Source: Giardia intestinalis (lineage: Eukaryota). From it: a stretch of 64,000 nt of DNA. Below, piece by piece: positions 18,434 through 50,719 of this stretch. Below the pieces are notes generated by a model that had not been told where the DNA came from, ran no database searches, and was given only the letters and a program-made list of their open reading frames with translations. The position numbers and the translations under genes are program-made. The DNA is taken from the NCBI GenBank assembly GCA_000002435.2, contig CM018793.1. One strand, written 5' to 3'. Numbering within the stretch: position 1 is the first letter of the stretch; each line of letters begins with the position of its first letter.

Positions 18434-18638
18434 GCTTTTTTGTCCTGACTCGGATTTTGTGCTGAATTTACATGTTGCTATTTATGAAACAAAGCTCACG
18501 CATACACAGGCTCCGGAAAAATAAATGTAGCGAACCCACGCGCAAGCGTTGCTACGAGGCGATGGAGACAAAAGCAGTTACGTTCGCAACTCTCTGAGGG
18601 TTCCTGATGCTTCCTTGGATGTCCGAGCCTTCCTTTAC

Positions 18639-29162: not shown

Positions 29163-32100
29163 ATGCTATCCTTTTATTTACAATGTGTCGTTTGAACGTA
29201 TTTTTCTATGAAAACTGAAGTTACAATACAATGTGTCCCTAGGAGAGGCGCCCGCCGCCCTCTGCCGTCTGCCCCGTGGGCCTCTCGAGTGCCCGCGAGG
29301 CGATCCGGCTAGCGTGTCCGCGCCCCTTACGTAGGCAGGGATTCTCGCCGTCTCTGTCCCGCCGCCCTGGGCACCAGCACAGGGTCGCTTGCTGCGCCAT
29401 CGTTGGTGCCTCTCCCGTGCCGAGCCAGGAGCACTGCAACCGCTGCAGCCTCTGTGTCAGGGCGGCCCGCACTGTTTTGTGGGTCCTCCTATGAGGTGCA
29501 AGCCGCGTGGGTGCCCTGATCGAGGTCGGCTAGCTGATCGGAAGCCTGAAGCCGGAATGACAGGCGCTCACAGTCTTCGACAGCTTTTGGTTCTGCTACT
29601 AGGGACAGATACCCACGATGACTATGCCCCCATCAGTTCGAATACAGTTGGCTGCGTTGTGGCCACGTCGTCAGCGTGTATCGGCTGGGCCCCTCAGAAG
29701 CTAAGAGTCTCGTCCAGAGCCCTTTCATCTCTATTTTGTTTCCAGTACTACTCCTGGAAGTCTACTAGCCCTTTGTCATGGTTAATGTGCAATGTTTCTA
29801 AGCTCTCAAGTCGTGGGACAGCCCGAGCACTCCTTGCCTTTCCCACTTCCTAGCAGGTTCACAAGCTGAGTTAGAGACGGCCGATTCTCCTGGCCCACAA
29901 CTAATAGACGCTGTACTAGCTCTACTCAGCTGCGCCTTCGGCTCTGTTTAGGCCAAGCTCCCAGTTCCCTGGAGGGACACCCTCATTCCCCATATCTTTA
30001 ATAAAGGCTAGAGCATTCATAGCCATACGTTCATGTAAAATATAACGCATGCTCCAAATACTCGAGGTGGTTATGCCCTTTCCTACTCCATGCCCCCGGG
30101 ACTGTATGCATTAGCATGACTTCAAAATATGCTCTGTTGAGCCTATCTTTTGGAGCACAGAAAACTAAAAGAACGGAGCCATGTTTTCGCCATGATCGAA
30201 CTCGGTTACGACTAGATATACTGTACTGCGACAGAGGAAAGCTCTCCATTAGAGTGTCTTTTCTCAGACACGTGAAATGCGCCATCAGAGCCGAAATCCG
30301 ACGAACCATCTCGAGGGCTTTGGCCTCTTGGATGGCCATTCTCCACTGTCTGAAGAACCTTATTGCGTCTTTAAGAGCAGACTTATAACATTGCATGCAC
30401 AGGCAAAAGGTTCTTTGTTGTGCAATACCTGTTTGTATTCAAAGGGATGTAAAGGCTTGAAGAGCTGCATAGTACACAGGTCGGCCTCAGTGGCGTCCGG
30501 AATAATCCCCTTCAATTAGATACCCCTACCTACCTCGTCCAATGTGTCTTTCAATGCATAAACAGTTCTATACAATCCTTTGCCAATCACTATAGCCAGC
30601 TTAATCATCGGATCATCACTCGTTTCAGTTTTCTCAGACATTTTTAGTTGATACTCGATGAGCTGACCTAATTGGTAGTGCCAAAGGTAGCATGAAGTTT
30701 GTCTGCTTTGCATATGGAAGGATCTGTTATATCCTTACAGAATTTGGCAGTGCAATGTATAATTACCAACAAGGATCTGTAAAGCAAATAGTCACAAGTT
30801 TTGAAGGATTTAGCAAGACTAAAAGTCACTCTCAGACCTCAACTTGAGTATAAGTGATGATCCTATCGAGAACTAAAGGTCCATAAACGTAACGGAACAG
30901 GCGAATAGTCCGATAATTATTTCTTCTTGAAACGACAGATTTTTTCATGCTTCTAAGTGATTAAACTAAAGACAAATTCTAGGCTAAATAAGAGCCCCGG
31001 AATCCCTTGAAGCATAAGCTATCCTATTACTGGGTTATTATAGAATCTAACTAACTCTAGTACTGTGGAATGGCAACCAGGTTTAAAGTAAGGGAAGATC
31101 TATGTGCTTACAGACTTTAGGCCCACGGGATAGGGGTAGCAAATCATATATTTGAAGCTAATTGTTTGCCATCTTATCTTCTAGCTGATTCACAGTAATG
31201 TGTATCCTTCGCACCGCAAATGGTTTCTAGTATCAAGAAAATGCATAGCAACTCTACCGGGCTACAGCTAAAATAAAGCAAGAAGCAAAGTCCACGGATA
31301 TATGCCCAACTATACATAGTTATCATAATTGGCTAGGGCCTCGCGGATTACACAGTGCCTTTGCGATGTGCAAGATAACATCGTATAGTAATGTGCACTC
31401 ATCCATAAAGTAGCACGCATTATTTGTACATATTGATGTAGCAGGGCCTGGTATCTCCAATTATCCGGATAGCTTTCTAACTCGACTAGTAATAAGTTGC
31501 AATATCTTTATTCTTCGCCAAATGGCCAGCATTTTCTGAGGGTCTAGACCAGGAATAGTGAAGTCAGCATTCAATTGAGTACTTGTACACTGCACATAGG
31601 GTGGGTTGGTCTCTACGCATCCAAAGTTTGTAGCGGAAACTCATTGCGTAACTATCTAAGAATCCTATGCAAAATCGATAGCTCTTAACGCAGATAGGCT
31701 ATCTTTTCAAATCTACAAATCGCTAAGATCCCCTTTCTAAAATCTTCGACATCACAGACCCCATGCCAGGCAGCAAACCTTGTGCTACATAATATGAGAG
31801 CCTCTAGGATGTGTAAACACCTGTGCGGCTACAGCGACGTATCTCCATTCACAGGTGCCAGTAGAACCGATGGACACTGGTGAAGCATATCGGTGGGTGG
31901 AAGATGTAGTGAGTCAGGCATTCTGTATACTGTCATTCACCACAGCTCCCGTAGTGAGCCATGGGGAGCCTGAAGACTGGTGCTCTATGGCGGCGTGAGT
32001 GTGGGTGGTGAGCCTAGAGCAGTCGCCGAATCGATGGTTTCGGGACAGCTTCTGTCATGAAGGATAATAGAACAGTGCAGCGAAGAACAGGTAACCCAAG

Positions 32101-35100
32101 TATCAAGAGATACACCTATAATGGCAACCAAGAGAAGTGCTATACATAGTTAGTGACCAATTCCCTTAGACAGGAAGCGGCAGATTATATGGCAGAAGAG
32201 AAGTGTTGTTACTGTCGGCCGATCAAGCATTCTAAGACATCGAAGCTGTGACGATGCATCTACCAGTGAGCTCCATCGTGCATTCTGAATGGCACGTTGC
32301 CCAACTAAGCTAGGGAAGTTCAGGAGATGACTACGCCCTTCTGTCATCGTATGTGCCCTTTGTGAACACATGTTTGACCCAGCATCCTCTGGCACTCAGA
32401 GTAAACCCAAGTGCAAGCAGGGTCAGGCTCATTGAGGCACACCTGCTACGAGTAGCCCCTAGTGTTGGCCAGTCACACCTGAGAGCGTATCTGTCTAGGA
32501 GAGCTCTATGTAGGGCGAGGAAGACCATCCTTCGCTGGTTGGCCGTGACTTGGAGCTCAGAACAGACAGGAAACTGAAGTGGTGGCTGGGCTATTGCTCC
32601 GCATCGTCTGTGCAGCCATGGCCAGGTCAGCCAGAAGGATGCCTCGATGTGCACATGATTGGCTTGTGTCTGAATACTAAAAAAACTTGAGGCAGCCACC
32701 GCGCCCGCCACCCCCAGGACAGAGCTTCTGCACGTATGGCTAGCTCCCCTTGTCAGTTCAGTCTATTGGTCCAATAGTCTGGGAACCCTCTGCCCCGCTC
32801 TCTGGCGTACGATGTATCGCAACTGCTCATAGGGGTAAGCAGCATGAAAGAGGAATTGCATGTGTAGACAGCGTGTTATGCCCGTCTCAGAGGACCGAGG
32901 TGTCTAACTACAGAGCGCTGCACCGAGCCATGCGCCCCACTGCCTTGCACTGGGGGCTGCCTCCACCACTGCACTTGCTACAACGGAGCTGTGTTGGCCC
33001 AGCAGATTAAGTAGATACTGCATCGACCCTATTTGACGATGTGTACACATCGCGTGATGTCCAATGGTGGAGCGGACACCGTGTGCCAAGGTGTCTGCTA
33101 TTAACGAAAAACAGCACTTGGTTGCACCAGAGATGCTTCTGTGTAAGCATGGGGTCTTCACACCTGTCCCCTATCAGCTATAGTGCCAGCTGTATATCCA
33201 GAAAGGTCCTGCAGAGCACTCCACCGTCTTTCAAGGTGAGACATGGGCTCCACACCTATAGCTAGAAACAGAACTCTGTACACCAACTGTTGTGACCCTC
33301 GTGTGGTAACTGGCCTGTATCATAATCAACTTACTAAACATCTATACACTTGTCTGGATGCCCGTTGCTGGTTTTAGACGGACCTGCGAAAAGGTTTGCC
33401 TTTGTCCGCATGACCTAGTGGTATCTAGTCTTGGTGACAGGCTTCAAGGAAGGAGGATGTTATTTGGGTACACAGAAGGCTACTCGTGTACAAAGATTCT
33501 CGGGAAGCAAATTTAGACAAAGAAGATGGAGAAAGCCAGGGAGCCCACTCTGTAATAGGATGACTAGGTATAGACCCATTTACAATAGGGAAGCACGTGA
33601 GTCATTCTGGCTTCTAAACATGGAAAGATCGTGGAGTCTGCGGACGACTTGGAGGCTGATTTGATTTTGTGCATTTGTAGCGAGGCAGAGGCTTTTGAAG
33701 ACCCACCTGTTCCGAAGTCGAGGGAGCTCGTTTCCTCTCCGTACGTGGCGCAAGACCCTATTGTAGAGGTATACGGTGCACACCAATATCAGTCAGCGTG
33801 TTTGCTACTCAGCAGTTCCTCAGTTGCGTCTTTTCGCAGTAGACGAGCCACCGGATGAGGCTCCCACAATCCACACGATTAGCTTTATAGTGCTCTGTAG
33901 ATGGCCATCCACCCTCACCAGGGGATGACTACATGCATTACGCAGTTTGAGGTACTTGGCAACCAAGGTGGCATAGTTAGCTCTTGCCCACTCAAGCTAG
34001 ACCTCAACCACCTTGCCAACCACATTCCAAGTCACGGTGTTTGTAGATGTCCACCTCAAGTCTACAAGGTGCATCCCACGACTGCACAGCGCGGATAGAA
34101 CCCTTTACCTGCTATAAGAGGCGCCAACCAGTTTGCTGCATCTGGATATCCCTTGTGCGCCCAACGGAGACTTAATGGATCACATTGCTGTGCACACCAG
34201 CCTCTCTGCTCGCGAGCTGCTTTAAGGCTCTCTCATTGTCTCGCCTCCACATGGTTGTCAGACTACCAAGCACTTTGTAACGTCAGCTGATCACCCGAGA
34301 TATCAAGCTTTCGTACAGCGGGTTGCTCAATGTGACACGAAATCTAGAGGGCACTGACTTTCTTAGCTTGCTGTCCATATAGCACTATCATCAATCTTCA
34401 GTCCAGTTGACCAGCACACAGTCCGTTCTCTGGCCAGCCAACCGGGCCTAGTCTTGCTGGTAGACTTTCGAGCATAAGAGTATCCCCTGACAGCGGTGGC
34501 CACGCTGTGTACATTGCCCGGATGATCACTCTTGGCAATGGCTCCAGGACCTGGGCACCCCAGACCAGAGGGACGACAACGGCCCAGTTCGTCTACGGCT
34601 CCACTATCCCTTAGTTAGCATGGAGTGTGGCAGCCCAGATAGCGCTGGCCGTCCGGTATCACCTTTTCTCCGGTGCGCGGGGGTAGCCCTCGTGTGAGAG
34701 GCGCTGTGATATGTTGGCTGGAGCCGGTCAGGCGAGCGGGACCACCGCTCTAGAAGTGCTGGCACATCATTGCGTGTCCGAAGGCATGCCCACCTCAGTG
34801 GGACCATCCCAGATGAGGACGGACGGGCACCGGTTCCTAGATGGGCCTGCGACCGGCGAGGGACAGTCTTTAAAGACGATCGGCCGGCAGAACCTGCTTC
34901 AGTGGCATAGGAGTCGACAGGGGGCAGGCTTATCGACGGTCTGCGGTGCAACCAGGTTAAGTCGTATGACAGACGGACATCCATCCGTTCGCGGTGGGCA
35001 TGTTGCGTGTCCCTAAGCAGAGGGGGCAGTCGTAGTGAGTCGCGATAGAACACGCAGCCATCCTCCACGGGGCATCGCTCCTGCCGGGCCTCAATGTAGG

Positions 35101-35456
35101 ACCTCGACAAGCAGTGTCTGAGGCATCTGCTTGTGATGACCCGTGGCTCGGGCTGCTGGGGATCGCACGGCCGGCTCCATCGGGTCGCTGGTCAGACATC
35201 CAGGAGAGCCTAGGAGTCCCTTGGCAGACCTTGTGACTGGCACAGCAGGAGAACTGGTCGCCAGGAGACCCTCACATCACAGCGAAGAGCGAGGCAGACC
35301 ACTGTCTAGCAGTTACCATGCGATGCGCCTTGCAACACAGAGGAGGGGCCTGCACTGATCGATCCATCTCACAGCCAGCCAGTCACATGAAAGTCGAATC
35401 AGCACGACCCCACCTCTCAGTGCAGACCATGTAGAGACCCTCCCTGCCAGCGCGTC
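29163..35456. other. About 6.3-kb region without credible protein-coding ORFs (GC-rich 29.24-29.56 kb; AT-rich about 30.7-31.8 kb; moderately GC-rich 31.9-35.4 kb)
   Basis: The six-frame track shows only scattered ORFs of at most 168 aa in mixed frames, against a background where more than 85% of the window is coding. Stop codons are dense in all frames across 30.7-31.8 kb. Confidence 0.6.
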
Positions 35457-35537
35457 ATGCAGCACAGGCAGATGCCACGAAGGGGCGGACTAGTGAACAG
35501 AGCTGTCATGGCCTGTGTGACAGAGCGCCGGGCCATA

Positions 35538-37313
35538 ATGTTCTACGCAGTTTTACTGATCGGCCTTGCGCTTCAGCTGGCGACAGAGGAGTGCACACCT
35601 GTTTCTTCCGGTGGCCCCAACACTTGCAAGGCCTGTGACGCTGTCATCAACGGCAAGAAGTACTGCTCGCAGTGCAATGATACTGGGAATTCTGATTCCA
35701 GTGGCGCCCCGACAGACGGAGTGTGCTCAGCAGACAATAACGAGTGCAGCCAAAAACAAGATGGGAAGTGTACACAGTGCGCTAATAAATCCTTCATGTA
35801 CAAGGGCGGATGCTACAAGGATAGCCAGGCACCTGGCAACACGATGTGTGAAACAGCAACTGATGGAGTGTGCACGCAGGCTAAGGCTGGGTACTTCCTA
35901 CCACCCGATGCTGATAGAGATAATGCACACCAATCGGTCATACCATGTGGAGATGACACAGTAGTAACGCTTGGAAATAGCAAACAGTACAAGGGCGTAC
36001 CGCACTGCACTCAGTGTGAGAAGCCCACAGAGGCAAGTGATACTACTACTGCCAAGGCTGCGACGTGCACGGCTTGTGAGGACGGGTTCTTTGGGGCTAC
36101 TTGTGAAGCATGCCAAGACGAGAATTGCGCTACGTGTGCCATGACAGGCAATAACAAGTGCAGTAAGTGTAAAGGAACTGGTACTAAGACATATCTGAAA
36201 GTGGACGGTGGCAGCACAGGCACGTGCGTCGAAGCATCTGGATGTACAGCTGCTACGTTTCCAAAGGTCGATGAACAACAGGGAAACAAGTGCGCTGCAT
36301 GTAATAGTGTGCCAGATGGTGGAATCGCTAATTGTGCGACGTGCAGTCTGCTCACTCAAGGATCTAGAGCCGCCCCTTTGGTCACATGCTTGACGTGTGA
36401 ACAAAATAAGTATCTCACTCCAGAAAAGAATGCGTGCTTAGATACCTGCCCTGCTGGAATGTATGCCGTTAGTGGCGATAGCGGCAATGTTTGTACCCCC
36501 TGCCACGAGTCGTGCGCAAGCTGTAGCAATGACGCAGCAACGTCGTGCACGGCCTGCTATCCGGGGCATGTGCTGAGTCGGTCGTCTGGTGACGCAGGAA
36601 CGTGCATAAAAGAGTGCACGGGAGACTTTATGGCCCACTGCAAGGCCGACGGCTGCTCACTGAACGTCGGAGGCTCGAAGTACTGCGATCAGTGCGAGGA
36701 GGGGTACGCCCCAGTCGACGGCGTCTGCACATCCATACCTGCAACAGCGAGAGATGCCTCCGGATGTAAGGCAAGTGGCGGGAAATGCACTGAGTGTGGG
36801 GCAAACTACGCTCTGTTATCGGGCGGATGCTACAACACACAGAAGCTTCCTGGTAGCTCTGTGTGTACGGCTGCACAGAATAAGGGACAATGCCAAACGT
36901 GTGCCAATGGACAAAGCCCAGCTGGAGGAAAATGTCCGGCGTGTACTGAAGGATGTGTGAAGTGTGCGGGTAGTAAGGAAACCTGCACAGATTGCTTAGC
37001 AGGGTATTACAAAGGTGCCGGTGATAAATGCTTCAAATGCACGGATAGTGATAAGGCTAGCTCTAATGCAATAACTGGTGTAGAAAACTGCATAAGCTGT
37101 GCCCCGCCAGCTGGTGGCAATGGCCCTGTCACCTGTTACGTAACGCAACAAAAGGCTGACGATGGCACCGGCGGAGATACTGGAGGAGACAGCACGAACA
37201 AGAGCGGCCTCTCCACGGGCGCCATCGCGGGGATCTCCGTCGCTGTGGTCGCTGTCGTGGGGGGCCTCGTGGGCTTCCTCTGCTGGTGGTTCCTCTGCCG
37301 GGGGAAGGCGTGA
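35538..37313 (+). CDS. Variant-specific surface protein (VSP), about 591 aa from the signal-peptide Met
   Basis: N-terminal hydrophobic signal peptide [15 protein letters not shown]; more than 25 CXXC motifs; GGCY motif; C-terminal TM segment plus the invariant [17 protein letters not shown] tail. The conserved 3' motif CTTAGGTAGTGAAT starts at the stop codon. The start is trimmed to the ATG at 35538. Confidence 0.9.
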
Positions 37314-37327
37314 CTTAGGTAGTGAAT
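37314..37327 (+). promoter_or_regulatory. Conserved VSP 3' end and poly(A) signal (CTTAGGTAGTGAAT)
   Basis: It directly abuts the VSP stop codon. The same TAGGTAGTRAAY core recurs at 37590, at 40296 (minus strand) and at 42942. Confidence 0.6.
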
Positions 37328-37395
37328 GCTGTACAGTGATAGTGATAGTGCTATGTGGTGTGACATGCTCTGTGGGTGACTGCAAGAGCTGTGTG

Positions 37396-37584
37396 ATGGA
37401 TGATGTGTGTGGGGAGTGCAGCGATGGGTTCAGCATAGAGGGTGGCAGGTGTGTGTCTTCTGGCACCAACAGGAGCGGGCTCAGCGCGGATGCCATCGCG
37501 GGGATCTCTGTGGCTGTCGTCGTCGTCGTCGGAGGGCTTGTCGGCTTCCTCTGCTGGTGGTTCGTGTGCAGAGGAAAAGCGTAG
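37396..37584 (+). pseudogene. Truncated VSP 3' fragment (last CXXC module, TM and CRGKA tail), a tandem partial duplicate of a VSP 3' end
   Basis: It encodes ...[76 protein letters not shown]. There is no signal peptide and no in-frame Met upstream except the one at 37396. It is followed by its own CTTAGGTAGTAAAT motif (37590-37603). Confidence 0.55.
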
Positions 37585-38135
37585 ATGTACTTAGGTAGTA
37601 AATACGTCACTGTATAAGCCTATCACTCCTGTTTCCAGGGCCTCGCCTGTAGGTGCATTCAAGGATCTCACGGGCAATTCTTATTCAATTTCTGGCCGTC
37701 CGGAGATGAGGGTTGGTTTTGGATAACATAACGAGAGAGTCCTCTCCAGTGATATATCCAGAGCCTAGCGCCTTCCCCGGTCGCTCCGCAGGGGTGTGCT
37801 CAGACCGAATGCGTACTTCGGTCCTTTCGGGGTTCAGGCCTTCTTACGGACTCTCTGGTCCACCAATGGCGCCTCTTCTTGGTCTTCCTTCGTGGCGGGT
37901 GAAGCTCCGGTCGCTGTCTTTTTTAGATGCCCCGTCTGTCGGGGGCTGCCATCGGGCTCTCCGCTGGCTGGGCCCCTCGGTGTCCGTCCGGCTGTGGTTC
38001 TGGGCAGTGGTCCCACAGTCGCGGTCACGTAGGTCCCAGTGGGCCGGCTGGTGGGTGGGGCGGGGGTATGGGGCGGTGAGGCTGGAGGGGCTCTGGTGGG
38101 ACCAGGTGGTGGGTGTTCGTATGTGCCCCTGAGCT
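37585..38135 (+). repeat. Inverted-repeat arm A (3' flank of VSP 35538..37313 and its tail fragment)
   Basis: The translated ORFs on this arm (37713..38132 +, 37796..38032 +, 37844..38287 -) reappear almost residue-for-residue on the opposite strand at 39626..40274. Direct nucleotide comparison of 37690-37800 with the reverse complement of 40090-40200 gives about 80% identity, rising above 90% over 37863-38075 versus 40024-39799. Confidence 0.8.
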
Positions 38136-39759
38136 CCTGATGAGTGGGGTGATCGCAGCTGTGGTGACTGGGGGCTGTCCATCTGTGACTCACCCCTCTG
38201 TGTGCTCGTGGTCTGTGAGTGCCTCCACCCAGACAACGCCTCAGGAGCCGTGCACACCGGGACAGAGAGGATGACCAAGGGGGTCAAGCAGCCCCGCTAC
38301 GAGAGATGAGAGTGCACAGCAACCAGCCTGATCTGCAGGGCTGCTCGAGCGATGTAGTGGTAGACGGCTCCCTCTGACAGCGACCCTGGTGACTGCACTG
38401 GCCTGCTCTCGAGGCTGAGTGACAGTGTGCACAGATGGACCTGAGTGCAGGAGGACCATCCACACACGAACAGACTGTGTAGACCCAGAGAGGACTGGAG
38501 TCTGCTCGGGACACGCTGACTGTGCCCCCATACGAGAGCACCAGGCAACCACCCGAGCACCCGAGAGGCAACAACAGACACGGGCACCAGAGATCCCCAA
38601 CCAGATACATTGCTACGCTCATCCACAGGGGCATCAGAGGACCAGGTGGGGTCACCCTCACAGTCAGGGCCTGATAGGAAGCCAGAGGACTCACGCAGCA
38701 CAGTAGGTCCAAGGGAGGCACACTCCAGGCAGGTGAGCAGTGGCAGAGCCCTGACAGCTGCCAGCCCCCATGACACCCAGGCAGGCACCAGACTCACCGA
38801 AGACTCCGCTGGCCTCGACTGTCTTCATTGATGACCCGAGGGGGCAGCAGCCAGAGGAGTGAGGAGGCCTTCGGACGCCACAAGAGGCCCGGCTGTCCAG
38901 CAGGCTACGAGGCAGACAGGTGACCTCTGAGCACCACCCAGGCACAGAGCCGACCATCAGAGTGATGCCCGATCACAGAGATGATCACGAGCACCCTCCA
39001 CTGCACTCTGAGGGGCTGTCAATCATCCCAGCTGCCTCTCATAGCAGACCTCCTTGGGGGCAGTGCAGTGGGTCCCAGCTCATGCAGGAGGGTGCACGCC
39101 CCTCGGCATAGGATGCCCCGGCTCTCCCCGAGGGGTCATCAGAGCCACGAGAGGTGTTAAGGTTAGTAGACCACACCGGGAACTCCCGAGGGCACAGCAG
39201 GTGATGTTGGGTGATCCTCAGCGTGCTCCTCTCTGATGGTAGAGCATCCTGAGACCAAGGAGGCTCACCTCTGCCTACGGACGACACACAGCGCTCCACA
39301 ACGAGGACCCACCAGGAGCAGCACAGCTGGTCACGGGGATAGTGCAGCCACCCGGTGCCCCACCGTGTTAGTCTTTTGAGTCATCACACTAGAGGCATGA
39401 GAGAACCCCATCCCATCCACAGGCTCATCCACACCCCTGCTGGCCCGAGGTGAACTACCGTCGAGGCACTGGACAGGGCATGCCAGGGGCTCAGCAGATC
39501 CACACAGAGCATCAGCACAGAGCATCAGCGAGTAGCAGGAGAGGCTGCGATGGCCTGCCTCAACCCTCACGCACCAGCCAGACAGAGAGGCAGTACTGCC
39601 CGAGACAAGGGGCCAAGGGAGGCGCTCAGTCAGGGGGACACGACACGATCGTCGGTGCCTGTGTCTTGGAGTGCAACGAAGGCTGGGGATCAGACACAAC
39701 CACCTTAGCAAACAGAGCGGGGATCACCCACCACCCCACTGGCCCACTAGACCCAGGGA
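38136..39759. other. GC-rich spacer, ORF-free (only Pro/Arg-rich GC-artefact ORFs), between the VSP-flank inverted-repeat arms
   Basis: No ORF has recognisable protein features. Composition is above 60% GC. It contains a small direct duplication acagagcatcagc x2 at about 39503-39530. Confidence 0.5.
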
Positions 39760-40310
39760 CACATACAAGCACCCCCCACCTCAGCCCCCACCAGGAGCCT
39801 ACCAGCCTCACCGCCCCATACCCCCGCCCCACCCACCAGCCGGCCCACTGGGACCTACGTGACCGCGACTGTGGGACCACTGCCCAGAACCACAGCCGGA
39901 CGGACACCGAGGGGCCCAGCCAGCGGAGAGCCCGATGGCAGCCCCCGACAGACGGGGCATCTAAAAAAGACAGCGACCAGAGCTTCACCCACCACGAAGG
40001 AAGACCAAGGAGAGGCGCCACTGGTGGACGATGTACATGGTGAGTAAGCGGAATCCCAGGCCGACTGAGCAAGCATTCCCGGGTGTGCACACTCAGCTGA
40101 GCACACCCCTGCGGAGCGACCAGGGAAGGTGCCAGGTTTTAGATATACTAAAAGAGAGGAGCTCCTCGTTATATCATCCACAACCAACCTTTGTCTCCGG
40201 ACACGGCCAAAGGAGCGAGAATTTATTCGTGAGATTTCTGGATCGTACCTACAAGCACCCGGTAGCACATCCATATAAGCTACATAAAGTAACGCGTTTA
40301 CTACCTAAGT
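39760..40310 (-). repeat. Inverted-repeat arm B (3' flank of VSP 40311..42638)
   Basis: Reverse-complement counterpart of arm A. It includes the VSP 3' motif (GTTTACTACCTAAG, 40296-40309 on the plus strand, reading CTTAGGTAGTAAAC on the minus strand) and the downstream block tggccgtgtccggagacaaaggttgg...ggtcgctccgcaggggtgtgctcag. Confidence 0.8.
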
Positions 40311-42638
40311 CTACGCCTTCCCCCTGCAGAGGAACCACCAGCAGAGGAAGCCCACGAGACCCCCCACAACGACGATGACTGCGACGGAGATCCCCGCGAT
40401 GGCGCCAGTGGAGAGCCCGCTCTTGTTCGTGCTACCACCGGCACTGTCACCGTTCATGAGGTAGCAGAGAACGGAGCCAGTACTAGACGATGGAGGAGCG
40501 CAGCTCATGCAGCCAGCAACTCCCTTGACACTTCCACTGTTGCTGTCACACGAAGTGCATGGTCCAGCTGCTGATCCGACCATATAGTACCCAGCTGCGC
40601 ATGACGTACACTGGTCAGAGCTATCTGCAGCTGAACATGTATTACAGGTTGAATGACACGAGGGGCATGCTCCATCATTGGGCCGAAGACTATTAGCACA
40701 TGTTTCGCACTTACCCCTGCTATCAGCTAATGTGCATATCTGTTTGCCTGGCTGCTTGGTAGTTTCATAGCAGCCGCCTTCCTTGAGGAAGTAGTTAGCG
40801 GCGCATTTGATACATGCTCCATTATTCATTTCAGTACAGAAAGCTACTCGTGCGTTACTTGTTGTACAGACCCCGTTCAGAGGAGCCTGATTATCCACTG
40901 AGCACTGGGAGCAGTAGTCTGTCCCGCCGATCCTTGCCCCACAGACCTTACATCCGTTCTTGTCCGCCGTACACGCATCCCCGCAGGTGCCCCCTTGCAC
41001 AGGATCACTACTTTTGTATATTAATGCCTTGCCAGCAGGACAAGCACTACACTGATTGTTGGCTGGCCCAACGCACTCAGCGCACTCAGGGCTGCATGCC
41101 TTACACTTCCTGTCAGTATCTCCATAGTATCCGCTGATGGTCGTGCAGTCAGGTATGCACTGGTTTGTTGGAGTGAGATAATTGTTGTCATTACATTCAG
41201 TGCAGACCTCTCTGTCAGTCTTCGGGTTATCACAGGCCTTGCAGTTGGGAGTATTGCAGGCCCCTGCCTTCGGAACACACGTGAGCCCGTCCTCTGACGG
41301 CTGGTACGTCTCCGTGCACGTGCAGATTCCTCCTGCCTCGTTTGCGTTATCGGGGCACTTCGCTATGCAGCCCTTTCCGTTCGGCTGGACCTTCTGTCCG
41401 ACCGTCGCACAGCCCGTGCATGTCTGCTCGCCCCCAGGAGGCGTTGCGCACGTGCTACAGCCGGGTATCGGTGGGTCACAGGCCGTTTTCAGGACACACG
41501 TGAGCCCGTCCTCTGACGGCTGGTACGTCTCCGTGCACGTGCAGATTCCTCCTGCCTCGTTTGCGTTATCGGGGCACTTCGCTATGCAGCCCTTTCCGTT
41601 CGGCTGGACCTTCTGTCCGACCGTCGCACAGCCCGTGCATGTCTGCTCGCCCCCAGGAGGCGTTGCGCACGTGCTACAGCCGGGTATCGGTGGGTCACAG
41701 GCCGTTTTCAGGACACACGTGAGCCCGTCCTCTGACGGCTGGTACGTCTCCGTGCACGTGCAGATTCCTCCTGCCTCGTTTGCGTTATCGGGGCACTTCG
41801 CTATGCAGCCCTTTCCGTTCGGCTGGACCTTCTGTCCGACCGTCGCACAGCCCGTGCATGTCTGCTCGCCCCCAGGAGGCGTTGCGCACGTGCTACAGCC
41901 GGGTATCGGTGGGTCACAGGCCGTTTTCAGGACACACGTGAGCCCGTCCTCTGACGGCTGGTACGTCTCCGTGCACGTGCAGATTCCTCCTGCCTCGTTT
42001 GCGTTATCGGGGCACTTCGCTATGCAGCCCTTTCCGTTCGGCTGGACCTTCTGTCCGACCGTCGCACAGCCCGTGCATGTCTGCTCGCCCCCAGGAGGCG
42101 TTGCGCACGTGCTACAGCCGGGTATCGGTGGGTCACAGGCCGTTTTCAGGACACACGTGAGCCCGTCCTCTGACGGCTGGTACGTCTCCGTGCACGTGCA
42201 GATTCCTCCTGCCTCGTTTGCGTTATCGGGGCACTTCGCTATGCAGCCCTTTCCGTTCGGCTGGACCTTCTGTCCGACCGTCGCACAGCCCGTGCATGTC
42301 TGCTCGCCCCCAGGAGGCGTTGCGCACGTGCTACAGCCGGGTATCGGTGGGTCACAGGCCGTTTTCAGGACACACGTGAGCCCGTCCTCTGACGGCTGGT
42401 ACGTCTCCGTGCACGTGCAGATTCCTCCTGCCTCGTTTGCGTTATCGGGGCACTTCGCTATGCAGCCCTTTCCGTTCGGCTGGACCTTCTGTCCGACCGT
42501 CGCACAGCCCGTGCATGTCTGCTCGCCCCCAGGAGGCGTTGCGCACGTGCTACAGCCGGGTATCGGTGGGTCACAGGCCGTTTTCGGGCCGATTCCTGCT
42601 AGAACCGTTGTGCACACTAAAAGAATTACTGCCAACAT
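40311..42638 (-). CDS. Variant-specific surface protein (VSP, 775 aa) containing six identical 73-aa tandem repeats
   Basis: Signal peptide MLAVILLVCTTVLAGIG; a six-fold repeat KTACDPPIPGCSTCATPPGGEQTCTGCATVGQKVQPNGKGCIAKCPDNANEAGGICTCTETYQPSEDGLTCVL; then canonical CXXC-rich VSP body, GGCY motif, TM segment and [12 protein letters not shown] tail. Confidence 0.9.
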   Translation of the reverse strand: MLAVILLVCTTVLAGIGPKTACDPPIPGCSTCATPPGGEQTCTGCATVGQKVQPNGKGCIAKCPDNANEAGGICTCTETYQPSEDGLTCVLKTACDPPIPGCSTCATPPGGEQTCTGCATVGQKVQPNGKGCIAKCPDNANEAGGICTCTETYQPSEDGLTCVLKTACDPPIPGCSTCATPPGGEQTCTGCATVGQKVQPNGKGCIAKCPDNANEAGGICTCTETYQPSEDGLTCVLKTACDPPIPGCSTCATPPGGEQTCTGCATVGQKVQPNGKGCIAKCPDNANEAGGICTCTETYQPSEDGLTCVLKTACDPPIPGCSTCATPPGGEQTCTGCATVGQKVQPNGKGCIAKCPDNANEAGGICTCTETYQPSEDGLTCVLKTACDPPIPGCSTCATPPGGEQTCTGCATVGQKVQPNGKGCIAKCPDNANEAGGICTCTETYQPSEDGLTCVPKAGACNTPNCKACDNPKTDREVCTECNDNNYLTPTNQCIPDCTTISGYYGDTDRKCKACSPECAECVGPANNQCSACPAGKALIYKSSDPVQGGTCGDACTADKNGCKVCGARIGGTDYCSQCSVDNQAPLNGVCTTSNARVAFCTEMNNGACIKCAANYFLKEGGCYETTKQPGKQICTLADSRGKCETCANSLRPNDGACPSCHSTCNTCSAADSSDQCTSCAAGYYMVGSAAGPCTSCDSNSGSVKGVAGCMSCAPPSSSTGSVLCYLMNGDSAGGSTNKSGLSTGAIAGISVAVIVVVGGLVGFLCWWFLCRGKA
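41271..42584. repeat. Six 219-bp tandem repeats, nucleotide-identical where compared, inside the VSP coding sequence
   Basis: The string gtgagcccgtcctctgacggctggtacgtctccgtgcacgtgcag recurs at 41281, 41500, 41719, 41938, 42157 and 42376 with identical intervening sequence. Only the outermost junctions differ. Confidence 0.9.
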
Positions 42639-42922
42639 TAAGTTTAAGCTTACGCTCGATTATTATTCTCTTCAATTAAGCTTATAATTAATCCATAAGT
42701 TATAGACAAACCACTGTTACCTTTTGATAAATCAATTAGAATGGAAAAGAATAAAATCAAGAGCACACCTACCAGAGGCCGGCTGATAGTGCGGTTCTCC
42801 CTGGCTTCAATAGAAACAGGATGAGTGAGGGCTAGACTCAGATCGTGCGTCCCTTGCGGAAACTAATAATTGTTCAGAGATGCATTCCTATACATTGCTG
42901 TCAGTATGTTTGTCGACTTTTT

Positions 42923-42955
42923 TGCAGAGGCAAGGTGTAGATTTAGGTAGTAAAT
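42923..42955 (+). pseudogene. Relic of a VSP 3' end: codons CRGKV* followed by the conserved TTTAGGTAGTAAAT motif
   Basis: tgc aga ggc aag gtg tag at 42923-42940 is one substitution from the invariant CRGKA*. It is followed by atttaggtagtaaatgcg. The upstream frame opens after a stop only about 20 codons earlier, so no gene body remains. Confidence 0.5.
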
Positions 42956-44101
42956 GCGTTAACTGATATGTGCAGATCCCTCTGTGCCCAGCTCGGGCTC
43001 CTCAGTAGCATACCTGGATCTGATGGATAGAGAAGCACACCTACTATAAGCATCTCTTGCTGATGGCCTGTAACCACCTTTTACAGTCCAGTGTGCATCC
43101 TCTAGTGCTCCACTTCCCCCTGTGGCCAGTGTATCTCTAGGGCGAAGCAGACTCTTTTGAAAAGGTATTGACCTAGCACCATGAAGGAGCGCGGGGCACT
43201 GCACTGGGCCCGTACACAGGTCAGAGGCCCGTAGTTGTAGGTCAGCAAGATCCCGGTGCGACGGTCGGGTGCTCGTCCATCAGAGCTCTCAGGATGGTGG
43301 CCAGGGGGCAGGAGCGACGCCTTTCTTGTCGGTCGCGACGCTGGTCAGTTGTCGATGCAAAATGTGCAAGGCCCCACAGGCGAGGAGCACAGAAGGGCAC
43401 AGGGAGCGTAAGGCCACCAGCAACTCGTAACTTTTTATATCTTGGTGGCCGGTCTCAGCACTTCGTAGGTGCAGATATGAGAAGCTGGGCCGAGTGATCT
43501 GCTGGTGGAGGGGCCGACACACACTTCTCTAAGGGTTCTGCCATGGGTGACGACGATGGTAGGCCGCACCACTGCAGGACCGACGCACGCCAGAAATAGA
43601 TGAAAGGCTCGCAAGCAGGTGCAGACTGGAGCGCCAGCCGCTGGCCGGATCACCCGCACAGGCACGCTCTGGTTACTTCAATAGATGGTTCAGTGGCACC
43701 TTAACGGAAAACACTGCTGCGCTCCACTTGCTGGCCATTTGAGGCACGCAGGTTCGATTGGTCCCAGGGCCACCGCTAAGCGTGGCATGACAGGCTATCT
43801 CCCAACATCGGGCGACGGTAAGACTCACGCCTACTTTTAGCCAACTGAGCTCGAAGCAATCCATGCCCTTGCGGGTCCATACTGGCGTGGTCTGTACAGC
43901 TATGCGCAGTGATGCATAACAGACCTCGGAACCGTAGACACCCTGGGCGCGCCCCTTGCTGCGCAGGGCCAGGGACGCCGGGAGGGCTCGGGCCGCCAAA
44001 TGCCTTGGTTCGCAGTCTTTCGCAGGAAAACCAGCTAGGAAGCGTAACCGCACGCCTCTTCGAGGTGAACGGGAATGGCGCAGCACTGTTCAGATTATAA
44101 C

Positions 44102-45874
44102 CTAAAGAGCATGAAAGTGTGTAATCATCTGTAGTTTGTCTGCATCCTTATATGAACAGAAACTTCCAGATTTGGCTATTATGACTTCACTGTCCCCTTC
44201 AAAATCCATTTCACGTACATATCCTTTAGCCACGTGAACGGTCGCAATCATGCTAAGCCGCTGAGAAAGGGCATCTTTCATTGTTGCAGTCTTATTTTGG
44301 TACTTCCTAGTCATCCTCTTATCATCGCAAGATTGAATCCTCTGAAGCTGGCCGTGGGTATCTACCTCAAACGAATAAATAACACTCCGTGTCTCTGAAA
44401 GTGTGTCTTGAGCATCAAGTCCTAGAGAAATTTTCATCGTAAGCCCTAGTGGTGTATTAGGATCCTCTACTTCTACTGTATCTAGTTTTCCATTTTTTGC
44501 TTCAGTGGTACAGCTGGCAGAAGCTTTGAAGTCTTCGTCAACTATCTTGAATAAAGGAGTAAGCACCTCTACTGTAGAACCAGATGATGTGCTACTCCAG
44601 TCTTCATTTCTCTTGCCTTCTATGGTACTGCCCCCCACTACTGATAGCCTAGTCAATGGATTTTTAGATGTACTAATATTAGTATGGGATTGATATTCTT
44701 CACAAACTTTACAAATAAAATCTTTGGTTCGTATTCTGTTAAATTCCCTAAGATTGCTAGCTGTCAAAGTACAGTCATTATATATAGTCCCCGATATAGA
44801 ATAAAAATATGCTAAAGCGGACCCAACGCAGTCAGTTATACCAGGATTGGTGCACTGATTGGGCTGTGCCAAGGCTATTGGGTCAAGCTTGTACTTAGTG
44901 TTGAGAAGAGGGAGCGAATCAAGGAGTTGTAACTTTGATAGATACTGATCTACTAGGTGCTGCCTTTTAGCCGAGATCTTGAGACTGTTGCAAATATGAA
45001 CAAAGTCGTCCTCGCCGAATGTATTTTTCTTGTTGGTGCGATGGGATTTTTCATAATCTCGAATCTTGTTTTTAACAATCGTGCTTGATATACTATACAA
45101 GGCAGTCAGAGCATTACCAAATGCGTCTGCCGACAGACACTGTGAGTAATTTGTGTCATGAAGGTAATACGATAACAGATAAGGAAACCCTCTGATCTTT
45201 GGAAGGCGATATAAGAAGTAACATATTTGTACATATACCTCGCACGTGATGACTTCGACGCTCGTGTAAGCATACTCCCAGATGAACCAAATATCTTCAA
45301 CTGTCGCAGAGAGCTTATAGAGTGTCTCTGTACAGACAACATCGTACTTAGTGAACTGCTTGGCAAGGGCCATGCCCAGTGTACGGCGAGAAATATGTCC
45401 ATGGCCGTGAAAGTCAAGAAGGTGGAAATCGTGGGCCACTTCTGCTGGCCTAAATGCAAAGAAGCTAAAGTCGGCATAAAGCCCGTCAGTGCCTAGAGAG
45501 CCAGATGCACGTGTATGTCCTAGTGCACCACGTTCAGCCCTTCCATTAGATTTCTTGCTGTCATCTTGAGATGTCGATCGAGCTTCCAAACCCTGTATTG
45601 AATAGCCTTTTGGGATTAGTGGGAGCACAGCAGTCAATTTTGTGCGAGGTTTATCCTTGGGAGGTTTTCTTTGCAGACATTGTTGTGGGCTATTTTTCTG
45701 TTGACTAGAAGACGAAGAAGAAGAGGACAGCTTTCTCTTTAATAGTCGGGCCTTCTGACTAGGCGATAGCATCGCCAAAAACATATCTTCGTCTTGGCGG
45801 CTGCCAGCTAAACCCATGGTCGACGCACCAAATGACAATTTTTTGCTTGAAACTGACCTGGTTCCAAAGCTCAA
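44102..45874 (-). CDS. Hypothetical protein (590 aa)
   Basis: A long ORF with a Ser-rich N-terminal region (SSSSSSSSQQ) and no recognisable catalytic motifs. Confidence 0.55.
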   Translation of the reverse strand: MSFGTRSVSSKKLSFGASTMGLAGSRQDEDMFLAMLSPSQKARLLKRKLSSSSSSSSQQKNSPQQCLQRKPPKDKPRTKLTAVLPLIPKGYSIQGLEARSTSQDDSKKSNGRAERGALGHTRASGSLGTDGLYADFSFFAFRPAEVAHDFHLLDFHGHGHISRRTLGMALAKQFTKYDVVCTETLYKLSATVEDIWFIWEYAYTSVEVITCEVYVQICYFLYRLPKIRGFPYLLSYYLHDTNYSQCLSADAFGNALTALYSISSTIVKNKIRDYEKSHRTNKKNTFGEDDFVHICNSLKISAKRQHLVDQYLSKLQLLDSLPLLNTKYKLDPIALAQPNQCTNPGITDCVGSALAYFYSISGTIYNDCTLTASNLREFNRIRTKDFICKVCEEYQSHTNISTSKNPLTRLSVVGGSTIEGKRNEDWSSTSSGSTVEVLTPLFKIVDEDFKASASCTTEAKNGKLDTVEVEDPNTPLGLTMKISLGLDAQDTLSETRSVIYSFEVDTHGQLQRIQSCDDKRMTRKYQNKTATMKDALSQRLSMIATVHVAKGYVREMDFEGDSEVIIAKSGSFCSYKDADKLQMITHFHAL

Positions 45875-45974
45875 TTACGAGATAGAAGCACCCGCTGCCA
45901 ATGAATACGTGTCCTTCCAAGGCAATGGTCTGAGACAGTAGACTTCAATTCCCAAAATTTTCATTTACCTTTTA

Positions 45975-46460
45975 ATGAGTGGAAACAACCCTCTGAAGAA
46001 GCTTGTCACCATCCAAACCACTTTAAAGAAGATTATGATGCGAATAACTAACATAGAAGAGCAGATAGAGCAAGAGGAGCGCGAAAAGGCGCGGTGTATG
46101 ATAGGGATTACCCGAAGCATTATGAAGAGACATATAGAGCAGAACAAAACTTTGGAGCGTGAGCTAGCAATTCTTATGATGGTGGACGAACGTCTCACAA
46201 ACCAAGCGAATGCTAATGAAAAACTTAGTAGAGAACTCGTCAGCCTCGTGACGTACTTCAAAGACGCAGTGATCCCAAGAGAGAGGCAGCTGGCTCCTGT
46301 GTTCGTGCCGGCCATGACGCCCCAGACCGCCCAGGTGATTCAGAAGGCTCCGGCTCCAAGGCCGCTTTCTCACATTCGGCAGATCACGCATTTGAACAGT
46401 TCGGTAGGGTCTTTCATTACAACCACAGCAACGCCTGTTACGAAAGACGTATCAAAGTAA
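45975..46460 (+). CDS. Hypothetical small coiled-coil protein (161 aa)
   Basis: An AT-rich initiator aaaattttcatttacctttta precedes the ATG. A charged heptad-like segment (EEQIEQEEREKAR...) is present. An antisense ORF of 116 aa overlaps it but lacks these features. Confidence 0.4.
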   Translation: MSGNNPLKKLVTIQTTLKKIMMRITNIEEQIEQEEREKARCMIGITRSIMKRHIEQNKTLERELAILMMVDERLTNQANANEKLSRELVSLVTYFKDAVIPRERQLAPVFVPAMTPQTAQVIQKAPAPRPLSHIRQITHLNSSVGSFITTTATPVTKDVSK

Positions 46461-46521
46461 TGTCTACCTCTACCGTCATCAAAATCATGGTAGACTTCTT
46501 GTAAATTTTACCTTTAATCAA

Positions 46522-47601
46522 ATGGAGAAAGACCGCCTGCAGAATAGGTCGACACCTCATGTGGTCGCTATGAAGCATAGCACAAGTAGCTTGTTTCATG
46601 ATAGTAAGCGGGCAATCCCTGGACCTCCCAGATCGATTGCTCCCGTTGATCTACAGGCATTGAAGCGGATTGCAAGCAATGCAAGCTCTGCTATTCCACC
46701 ACCCTTGGACTCCTATGTACCTAAGGCAGAACAAGTGAAGGGCCTGGCTCATATGTGCCCGAAGTTGTTCGAATTGGGCAATCGCTCTGTAGTTCCACTA
46801 TCTAAGGTGAAGGCTATCCCGGCCTACAAGGGCACCCCATATGACCAGCGAGCAGATGATATTTCTATCTTAGTAGCAATTGCTCATGAGAATCTAAGCT
46901 ATTATCGAAAAATCAATCTCCTGGTATTAATTCTAAACATGGTCTCTAACGTGTCTCAGTATCTGCACCAATGGATTGCTAACGATTACGCTCACTATAT
47001 TGAAAAGAAGAAGGCTGGAGACACTTGCATTAAGAGTATCTATGATCCAGCCAAGCAACCAGCAGCTGACCTCATTCGCGACCCGGAGTACTTGCCGGAC
47101 ATGTCAAGGTTTTGCAGTGAACATAGAAAATACAAACCAGAACTGTACAATAGCACGATCTCTATTCTGTCCGACTGCTTCTCTGACGCTGCATCTGAGC
47201 CTCCATCAATACTAGAATCGATGGTCAACACGCCCATAGGTTCTTCTGCCACGTCGATCCCCTCTGAAAACTCGTCAATCTCCTCGTTATCAGATCTGTC
47301 CACAGCCAGCGTCAGTGCCGAATTGCAGCGACGAAAAGTCATGAGAGAGTCTGTTTCTATGACAACAAGCAGCCTATCCGAGGGGTACAAGCAGATGGAA
47401 CTAAAAACACTAAAGCAGATACTACAGACTACTTTCAGTTGTCAACGAATAATCCCATTAGTTGATATAGAGAAGCAGCTGAAGCGAAAGCATCCCAAGG
47501 TAAACGCTCTTAAGCTACTCAGAGACCTAGCAGACACCACCACCTGCATTACAGTTTCCCAGGGAGATGTATCTATTGATTGGGCTAAAGCAAACTTCTG
47601 A
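46522..47601 (+). CDS. Hypothetical protein (359 aa)
   Basis: An ORF with an AT-rich context before the ATG (ctttaatcaaATG). No recognisable domain. Confidence 0.5.
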   Translation: MEKDRLQNRSTPHVVAMKHSTSSLFHDSKRAIPGPPRSIAPVDLQALKRIASNASSAIPPPLDSYVPKAEQVKGLAHMCPKLFELGNRSVVPLSKVKAIPAYKGTPYDQRADDISILVAIAHENLSYYRKINLLVLILNMVSNVSQYLHQWIANDYAHYIEKKKAGDTCIKSIYDPAKQPAADLIRDPEYLPDMSRFCSEHRKYKPELYNSTISILSDCFSDAASEPPSILESMVNTPIGSSATSIPSENSSISSLSDLSTASVSAELQRRKVMRESVSMTTSSLSEGYKQMELKTLKQILQTTFSCQRIIPLVDIEKQLKRKHPKVNALKLLRDLADTTTCITVSQGDVSIDWAKANF

Positions 47602-47617
47602 AGCGGCATGCGTTATT

Positions 47618-48754
47618 CTACTTTACGGTAAAAGAGCCTGTATTTAGCCATGAATGTGTAATACATACAACCAGATCCGTGATGTTACTGGCCCCAGTTG
47701 AGTCGGGACTGAAGTGTTGGGCCACTGCTGCATGAATACACTCAACGGATGGGTTCTCTAGCACTAGCTTAATGATGCTACGGAGGCTCTTGTCTAGAAG
47801 CTCACGTCCTATCACCGTCTGTGCCTTTTGATATAGCTGCTTATATCTGTGTGCTAGTTCTGCCCGTAGTACCTTAGTATATTCAGTATTTAGAACTATT
47901 GGCGTAAGGACTCCAGGCTGGCTCATCTTGCCATTTGCAGATTGTCCAGCACTAGCTAGGACACCAAACATGGCGAGTGCTTCTGCTGCATCTGAGCGCC
48001 GCTTTTCCTCCTTTTCCAGCATGTTATAGATGGCGTTGCAGAATGGTTTGGAAAACTTTTCCGGAAGAGGGTCGTACTTTCCTTCAACAATCTGCATGGC
48101 AACAGATACAATTGTTCGCCCCGTGAAAGGGCGTTTTTGCGCCGCAAGCTCATAGAGTGTCACGCCTAATGACCATATGTCCGATTTTGTGCTATACATA
48201 TGCTTAGAAATGAGCTCTGGCGAGAGATAGTAGGGGGTTCCGACCAGTGTCGTTGCAAGGGACGACTCTCCAAGGACCTTTGCAATGCCAAAGTCTCCCA
48301 GCATCACACGAAACGGGTACTTTCTTTCTTTCGAAGATTCTACAGTGGTCTTTGCGAGGAAGATGTTCGCCGGCTTTACGTCACGATGTATCACATTGTG
48401 TGAATGCAAGTATATGAGAGCGTTTAGTATCTGTGTAGCAACATAAGTAATGAACGGCTCATCAAAAGGTTCTGAAGAACTTCTCATAAAGTTTTGGAGA
48501 TCTCCCTTGTTAGCGTATTCTGTTATGATGTTGAGTGCTCCGTTTTCTAAAAAACTTTGCTTGTAGGAGACTATGTTTGGATGGAAGAGTTGTGATAAGA
48601 GATTTGCCTCCCTAAGCGCTCGCTCTCTCTCGGCAGCAGGTAGCTGCGCCAGGGTAAGCTCTTTGATAACGACACTGGCACCAGTCTCAGTATCCTTTGC
48701 TAACCATGCAATTCCATAAGCACCTCTACCAAGAATACGATTCTTTATGTACAT
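47618..48754 (-). CDS. NEK-family serine/threonine protein kinase (catalytic motifs intact)
   Basis: Glycine loop GRGAYGIAW; VVIKEL; HRDVKPANIFL; DFGIAKV; GTPYYLSPE. The N-terminal kinase domain is followed by a non-catalytic tail, as in NEKs. Confidence 0.8.
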   Translation of the reverse strand: MYIKNRILGRGAYGIAWLAKDTETGASVVIKELTLAQLPAAERERALREANLLSQLFHPNIVSYKQSFLENGALNIITEYANKGDLQNFMRSSSEPFDEPFITYVATQILNALIYLHSHNVIHRDVKPANIFLAKTTVESSKERKYPFRVMLGDFGIAKVLGESSLATTLVGTPYYLSPELISKHMYSTKSDIWSLGVTLYELAAQKRPFTGRTIVSVAMQIVEGKYDPLPEKFSKPFCNAIYNMLEKEEKRRSDAAEALAMFGVLASAGQSANGKMSQPGVLTPIVLNTEYTKVLRAELAHRYKQLYQKAQTVIGRELLDKSLRSIIKLVLENPSVECIHAAVAQHFSPDSTGASNITDLVVCITHSWLNTGSFTVK

Positions 48755-48891
48755 CAGTAGGGTAGTATGAGTCCTTCGATATTAAATTTAGATTAACGTA
48801 TGCAGTTACTGGCTACAGTAATATAAAACGTGTTGAGAGAATATTACAGATTTCCAAGTAGCACGTTTATTTGTTCTAGAACACGGTTGGT

Positions 48892-50694: not shown

Positions 50695-50719
50695 CCGAAG
50701 TCTGTGACACTTCCGCATA

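Follow-up and report, generated by a model that had tools for sequence, protein, structure and literature searches.

The locus analysed here lies in a 64,000-nucleotide (nt) stretch of contig CM018793.1 (assembly GCA_000002435.2) of Giardia intestinalis, hereafter called the window, and comprises two convergent genes for variant-specific surface proteins (VSPs), designated VSP-A and VSP-B, together with a truncated VSP remnant and a large inverted repeat located between their 3' ends. Three proteins encoded in the window exactly matched annotated proteins of G. intestinalis WB clone C6 on chromosome 5 (NC_051860.1). Antigenic variation in Giardia is based on VSP genes, and little is yet understood of how their repertoire arises and is reshuffled.

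VSP-A and VSP-B were each an exact match to an annotated WB VSP, and they converge as two complete genes, VSP-A on the plus strand and VSP-B on the minus strand, as the initial annotation of this DNA had described. Both genes exhibited the characteristics of the VSP family (PF03302), namely a cysteine-rich CXXC ectodomain, a C-terminal transmembrane (TM) helix, a terminal CRGKA, the extended polyadenylation signal ACTTAGGTAGTAAA after it, and a PyAATGTT initiator, which is TAATGTT in both cases. The definition of the extended VSP polyadenylation signal motif was taken from the S6 table of the Rodriguez-Walker 2022 preprint (10.1101/2022.03.07.483299). The last ~140 nt of the two 3' ends were 90.7% identical (37191-37329 versus 40433-40294). 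This likeness reached only 16 nt beyond the VSP-A stop codon, at the polyadenylation signal, and the gene bodies were unrelated sequences.

A second VSP tail was located 271 nt downstream of the VSP-A tail in head-to-tail orientation. It belongs to a VSP remnant whose frame runs from 37339 and which is followed by a separate polyadenylation signal; neither a PyAATGTT initiator nor a signal peptide was found in 37339-37584. The mechanical open reading frame (ORF) of the remnant, 37162-37584 (140 amino acids, aa), overlaps the 3' end of VSP-A and corresponds to the old entry XP_001703911.1 (P0024, 100% identity); PF03302 was precomputed for proteins P0002 and P0024. In length and cysteine count, the 140-aa ORF agreed with the 'VSP30' of Adam 2010 (PMC2996952), in which the 140-aa entry was called a "VSP" and 'VSP31'/'VSP30' were entered as an 'overlapping linear array'. 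The linear arrays of that study consist of a VSP followed head-to-tail by initiator-less pseudo-VSPs, some of them 'overlapping', and VSP-A with its remnant is a two-member case in its tail spacing, the lack of a downstream initiator, and the overlap of the mechanical ORF with VSP-A. Unlike in those arrays, however, the last member here also anchors the left arm of an inverted-repeat module. This pseudogene stub, and not the complete VSP-A, carries the left arm of the inverted repeat. The arm had initially been taken to follow the stop codon of the complete left gene, but position 37585 follows the remnant, and VSP-A stops at 37311-37313.

The inverted repeat was aligned by using blastn; the match between 37463-38131 and 40432-39754 extended over 696 columns, contained 18 gap openings, and had an identity of 79.6% (E 1e-165 to 1e-167). 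The long inverted repeat had been predicted with coordinates that proved right within a few bases. Counted from the stop codons of the remnant (left) and VSP-B (right), the flank arms were 547 nt (37585-38131) and 557 nt (39754-40310) long, with 1622 nt between them. The likeness of the arms was lost abruptly past 38131, and both arm ends agreed within a few nt. The coding tails had been described as near-identical, which holds for VSP-A and VSP-B; the tails within the arms were 81% identical, no more than unrelated VSP tails among the sequences compared (79-91%). Because the arm coding tail is no closer than unrelated VSP tails, only the flank is specifically duplicated. The earlier view that the duplicated unit is a VSP 3' end plus flank, and not the VSP body, was therefore correct for the unrelated bodies and the inverted duplicate flanks and too wide in including the coding tail. 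No further copy of the flank or the centre was found elsewhere in the 64-kb window, nor was there a larger inverted repeat taking in the regions upstream of VSP-A and VSP-B. The features of the locus are listed in Table 1.

Table 1. Coordinates of the genes, repeat arms, and arm segments at the convergent VSP locus (window positions; CDS, coding sequence)
Feature	Position	Strand	Description
VSP-A, complete VSP	35538-37313	+	GL50803_00115742 / XP_001703913.2, 591 aa; TAATGTT initiator at 35536; stop 37311-37313
VSP-A extended polyadenylation signal (GACTTAGGTAGTGAATGCTG)	37312-37331	+	VSP-A/VSP-B similarity stops here
5'-truncated VSP remnant (pseudo-VSP)	37339-37584	+	membrane-proximal Cys motif, TM helix, CRGKA and stop; stop 37582-37584; 246 nt
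Left arm	37463-38131	+	remnant coding tail (37463-37584), polyadenylation signal, 547-nt flank
Coding tail	37463-37584	left-arm coordinates	81.1% arm-to-arm identity
Proximal flank	37607-37857	left-arm coordinates	66.5%, 48 gap columns
Distal segment ahead of perfect block	37858-37908	left-arm coordinates	92%
Perfect block, left copy	37909-38085	+	100% over 177 nt; probable gene-conversion tract
Terminal segment	38086-38131	left-arm coordinates	77.6%
Unique centre	38132-39753		1622 nt, GC 0.62; AT skew +0.25, same sign as right arm
Right arm	39754-40432	-	557-nt flank (39754-40310) and last 122 nt of VSP-B CDS
Perfect block, right copy	39802-39978	-	177 nt, identical to 37909-38085
VSP-B, complete VSP	40311-42638	-	GL50803_0050100 / XP_001703852.2, 775 aa; stop 40311-40313
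Third vestigial VSP tail and flank	42923-43980	+	...FCRGKV and stop, with GATTTAGGTAGTAAATGCGT, at 42923-42961

Identity along the arms was mosaic. A block of more than 90% identity had been noted initially, and the results revealed that it is real and stronger than claimed: the ungapped core 37858-38125 versus 40029-39762 was 92% identical and contained a perfect run of 177 nt. After this run, the longest perfect run in the arms was 25 nt, and the arms outside the 177-nt tract were ~72% identical. The chance expectation of a perfect run of 177 nt is ~1e-23 as an order-of-magnitude estimate. The tract is likely to have arisen through gene conversion between the arms. The arms of human Y-chromosome palindromes are kept alike by arm-to-arm gene conversion. 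Those palindromes likewise combine inverted arms and a unique spacer with perfect tracts from intrachromosomal conversion, but they are of megabase scale, whereas the present locus extends over kilobases and its homogenisation has largely been lost.

We compared the locus with published tail-to-tail VSP pairs. Adam 2010 (PMC2996952) reported 14 identical inverted VSP pairs; the ORFs of the tail-to-tail pairs were 2393-3222 nt apart, and their 3' flanks were nearly identical until an abrupt divergence 318-559 nt beyond the stop codon. Subtracting twice the arm from the distance in Table 5 of that paper leaves ~1.4-2.2 kb, mostly ~1.6-1.7 kb. In the chromosome-scale assembly of Xu 2020 (PMC7000408, Table 2), all 12 tail-to-tail pairs were 2526-2813 nt apart (mean 2693, standard deviation 77). 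The WB VSP repertoire contains 19-20 identical pairs. The stop-to-stop distance from the remnant to VSP-B was 2726 nt (z = +0.43 versus the 12 published pairs), and that from VSP-A to VSP-B was 2997 nt (z = +4.0), outside the published range. The symmetry of the flanks, which had been considered striking, is thus not unusual and equals the published pair geometry (Adam 2010 Table 5, Xu 2020 Table 2).

The WB identical tail-to-tail pairs (12-13 pairs, e.g. vsp1267 = GL50803_00112208/d112208) likewise have convergent 3' ends with 2.5-2.8 kb between the stop codons, flanks that are alike up to an abrupt point (318-559 nt; here 547/557 nt), and a ~1.6-kb non-coding centre without an annotated gene. 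However, their ORFs and flanks show full or almost full identity, whereas the present locus has unrelated bodies, a 246-nt stub as one partner, and arms of 80% rather than ~100% identity save for the 177-nt tract. It is also not a duplicated pair in the sense of identical ORFs, the likeness being limited to the last ~120-140 nt. The Rodriguez-Walker 2022 preprint (10.1101/2022.03.07.483299) described the intergenic regions of pairs as forming groups (*3 and *5 in its S4 table) 'very similar' or identical to each other. According to its S4 table, which covers identical pairs only and in which the present locus is not listed, the intergenic region of the non-duplicated GL50803_0050392 / GL50803_00112647 is 'very similar' to that of GL50803_0014586/d14586. 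This is a case of different VSP bodies on a shared tail-to-tail intergenic region, a layout that the present locus may share. Judging from the geometry and the published descriptions, the locus is probably an unlisted, decayed, and non-identical member of the known class of tail-to-tail VSP modules. P0220 and P0134, chosen by length as candidate orthologs of published tail-to-tail VSPs, were rejected, as they were only 53-60% identical to the same-length WB proteins P0210 and P0108.

The geometry also bears on whether a chimeric or fold-back long read produced a false palindrome-like junction in the PacBio assembly. The region is hard to assemble, as short-read assemblies from many isolates are interrupted at ~29266 and ~43950, on either side of the VSP island. 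The contigs carrying the neighbouring single-copy genes (Logan, ENA, and the DH isolate) all ended ~40-540 nt from Nif3 (near 29266) or ~150-520 nt from a 571-aa gene (near 43950). Fold-back artefacts, however, are perfect palindromes without a unique centre, whereas the identity of the arms here is 80%, indels are numerous, and 1622 nt of unique sequence separates them. Moreover, the adjacency of an A-like and a B-like gene is present twice in the annotation, and the geometry is that of 12 independently assembled pairs. An artefact of this type is extremely improbable.

The second adjacent A-like/B-like pair on WB chromosome 5, GL50803_0050101 / GL50803_0050102 (KAE8305472/473), lies ~17 genes away and is the next VSP pair in accession order. 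GL50803_0050101 was identical to VSP-A from approximately residue 66 to the end save for one residue and differed in the first ~65 residues. GL50803_0050102 matched the C-terminal 319 residues of VSP-B at 100% identity and had five 73-aa repeat units fewer (410 versus 775 aa). These protein comparisons suggest a recent segmental duplication with both ends within VSP genes, and chromosome 5 probably carries two copies of the entire tail-to-tail locus. VSP-B itself carries six tandem repeats of 219 nt (73 aa) at 41269-42663 on the minus strand. Five of the six were 99-100% identical, and the copy closest to the 5' end of the gene, which overlaps the start codon, was 79% identical. The number of repeats of this type was probably collapsed in older assemblies because these gave VSPs with the 219-nt repeat only ~2 copies (Adam 2010 supplement).

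Related loci in other isolates were examined. In the DH isolate (assemblage A2; AHGT01000035.1), 9906-10326 was 82% identical to window 37191-37602, the homology ending at the polyadenylation signal (37602). This DH locus (L024) contains a VSP-B-like gene followed by a mini-VSP at a tail spacing of 272 nt, and the flank is absent. The unit conserved between DH and the window consists of a VSP tail, the polyadenylation signal, a ~130-nt Cys motif, and a second tail, with a spacing of 271-272 nt. Because this unit occurs in DH without the flank, the 'VSP tail plus remnant' combination is not tied to the flank. There were numerous mini-VSP relatives of 55-142 aa.

The P15 isolate (assemblage E; L025, ACVC01000010.1) was syntenic with window 43742-52582 (83%) and contained a positional ortholog of VSP-B (79%), and at this orthologous locus no homolog of the flank, the centre, or VSP-A was found. 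An inverted repeat was present there at 8534-9723 and 11186-12375, with 1190-nt arms that were 100% identical and 1462 nt apart, surrounding the body of the VSP-B ortholog. Each P15 arm comprises the last 48 nt of a VSP CDS, the polyadenylation signal, and a 1142-nt flank. The P15 repeat thus resembles the WB module in that a VSP CDS end, the polyadenylation signal, and a flank are inverted at the same chromosomal site. It differs in that its arms enclose a VSP body and not a non-coding centre, and its flank is unrelated to the WB tail-to-tail flank and orthologous to WB 42923-43980. This WB segment was collinear with one P15 arm at 63-76% identity, and its vestigial VSP tail at 42923-42961 lies 285 nt upstream of the VSP-B start and is directed away from VSP-B. 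Recombination between the P15 arms would invert the gene body and leave the protein unchanged, and the perfect P15 repeat could be an effect of 454-era assembly. As the WB module and the P15 repeat occupy the same site, 'tail plus flank' inverted repeats arose there more than once.

Every mapped homology breakpoint, namely 37602 (DH), 40294-40305 (the limit of VSP-B homology with relatives in DH and P15), and 37329 (VSP-A/VSP-B), fell at the conserved tail or polyadenylation signal. Because all of them do so, the data fit a reading in which the conserved tail and polyadenylation signal act as a recombination joint for bodies and flanks. Conversion or homogenisation appears to be active in the VSP family, since WB has identical pairs and P15 a perfect inverted repeat. 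The flanks that follow 6 VSP 3' ends at four DH/P15 loci (L024, L025, L026, and L035) shared only the polyadenylation signal with the WB flank. As these flanks differ, the WB flank is not a module that accompanies VSP 3' ends in general. The initial annotation had proposed the 3' flank as a recombination or gene-conversion module; the breakpoints at the tail and the likely conversion agree with this proposal, but the generality of the flank does not.

We further searched the centre and arms for other types of element. A six-frame Pfam scan of 37585-40310 yielded no match at E <= 1, and a transposable element with terminal inverted repeats or a retrotransposon relic was ruled out because no element-encoded domain appeared. 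The centre contained no VSP fragments and no transfer RNA. With Rfam 15, the best match in 37300-40500 scored 22 bits against a gathering score of 58, and across the window only GlsR2 reached its gathering score. The folding of the perfect block showed no excess over shuffled sequence (z -0.35 and -0.87 on the two strands); the absence of a significant Rfam match and of a fold signal ruled out a known or structured RNA in the block. The five translated arm ORFs, concatenated, gave 0 matches in a protein database, and a 39-mer from the perfect block gave 0 matches in an exact-match scan of the JGI metagenomes. Scanning the same metagenomes with the VSP tail returned seven matches at ~45-56% identity and no flank copy.

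The arms may be functional at the level of transcription. Read-through or convergent transcription would yield a hairpin double-stranded RNA (VSP tail plus 177-bp stem) from which Giardia Dicer would produce small RNAs silencing VSPs, or the A-rich site ...CTAAAAAAG... on the antisense strand of the block would be a cryptic promoter for antisense VSP transcripts; in either case the block would be kept by selection. In an in-silico transcript of 37463-40432, 576 of the 669 left-arm nt, among them the complete 177-nt block, paired with the right arm. Franzen 2013 found overlapping transcripts in 81% of the Giardia tail-to-tail gene pairs with mapped 3' untranslated regions and A+T-rich stretches serving as cryptic promoters, and RNA interference has been put forward as a control of VSP expression in work cited there. 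However, an intact polyadenylation signal precedes each arm at both VSP ends, and 177/177 identity with sharp edges beside 66% is the signature of recent conversion and not of constraint. The module is also absent from the orthologous P15 locus and after the 6 DH/P15 VSP 3' ends. A function of this type is improbable. Still less probable is the broader proposal that tail-to-tail VSP modules, the present decayed one included, would generate hairpin or double-stranded RNA through occasional read-through and would thereby feed Dicer with precursors of small RNAs against conserved VSP 3' ends as part of mutually exclusive expression, the tract being kept by selection and not only by conversion. 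Most likely, the structure is a by-product of recombination in the VSP family without a function of its own.

The anatomy, joint breakpoints, geometry, mosaic identity, and absence of coding or RNA-family signals are observed, whereas the sequence of events, the copying direction, and the homology to the intergenic regions of other pairs are inferred. In the history that we favour, a VSP 3' end with its downstream flank would first have been duplicated in inverted orientation, giving the canonical ~2.7-kb module, that is, a unique centre of ~1.6 kb between two inverted arms of ~0.55 kb, each starting at the stop codon and polyadenylation signal of a VSP. The original continuous flank may have been the right arm plus the centre, with the left arm as the inverted copy. 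A hint to this polarity comes from the AT skew, which was negative in the left flank (-0.35) but positive in the right flank (+0.35) and in each half of the centre (+0.25), so that the centre keeps the sign of the right arm. The gene bodies would later have been swapped through recombination in the joint formed by the conserved TM helix, CRGKA, and polyadenylation signal, so that the left arm came to carry a head-to-tail 'VSP plus mini-VSP' unit and the right arm VSP-B with its tandem repeats. The arms would then have drifted to 66-80% identity before a recent arm-to-arm gene conversion restored the perfect 177-nt tract. Inverted duplication of a VSP flank followed by body exchange at the tail, arm decay, and gene conversion is, with reasonable likelihood, the best account of the locus.

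Several observations weigh against this account. The orthologous P15 site lacks the module, so that either the assemblage A lineage gained it or P15 lost it, and the divergence of the proximal arms (66.5% identity) is as great as the WB-P15 divergence of non-coding DNA here (63-76%). Because the arms have diverged as much as this DNA while P15 is without the module, duplication in situ fits poorly, unless these flanks change rapidly or the arms derive from two members of the family that had diverged beforehand. The perfect block could in principle reflect strong constraint instead of conversion. Moreover, membership in the module class is judged from geometry and published statements.

The second of these escapes amounts to an alternative origin, in which the arms are two previously diverged members of a dispersed VSP-flank family that were joined through recombination in the conserved tails, the 177-nt tract being converted later. 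It accommodates the 66.5% identity and 48 gap columns of the proximal flank, close to WB-P15 divergence, at a site that in P15 is without the module. Published tail-to-tail intergenic regions form several related groups, and the left arm is joined to a mobile 'VSP plus mini-VSP' unit that is present elsewhere; both are in keeping with such an origin. However, the 2726-nt distance, the ~550-nt arms, and the matching arm ends reproduce the exact geometry of in-situ inverted pairs, and arm ends that agree within a few nt are expected from one duplication and less so from chance juxtaposition. Although less remote than an RNA-based function, this origin is unlikely, and we prefer inverted duplication of a single flank.

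Both the tail-to-tail pair class and the sharing of intergenic regions, including by non-identical VSPs (2022 preprint), were already known, and the current picture is unchanged by this locus. Under the favoured history, the locus would represent a later stage of the inverted-pair modules earlier catalogued from pairs with identical ORFs, one with the geometry intact but with both bodies replaced and the arms decayed. The locus offers three clues: breakpoints at the tail and polyadenylation signal, a short and apparently recent arm-to-arm conversion tract, and an unrelated perfect 'tail plus flank' repeat at the orthologous P15 site. Together, these clues make the idea that VSP tails serve as recombination joints testable genome-wide.

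The edges of the VSP island were without sizeable ORFs. These comprise 6.3 kb upstream of VSP-A (~29170-35530), in which GC changes from 37% to 63%, and 1.4 kb past VSP-B (~42640-44100). A microRNA derived from the small nucleolar RNA GlsR2 has been reported to target VSP 3' ends. GlsR2 (Rfam RF02335, named GlsR2_miR4 in Rfam) had a full-length match in the window at 18526-18631 on the plus strand (133.9 bits versus a gathering score of 100), located in the short gap between a 5117-aa dynein heavy-chain ORF and the next gene.

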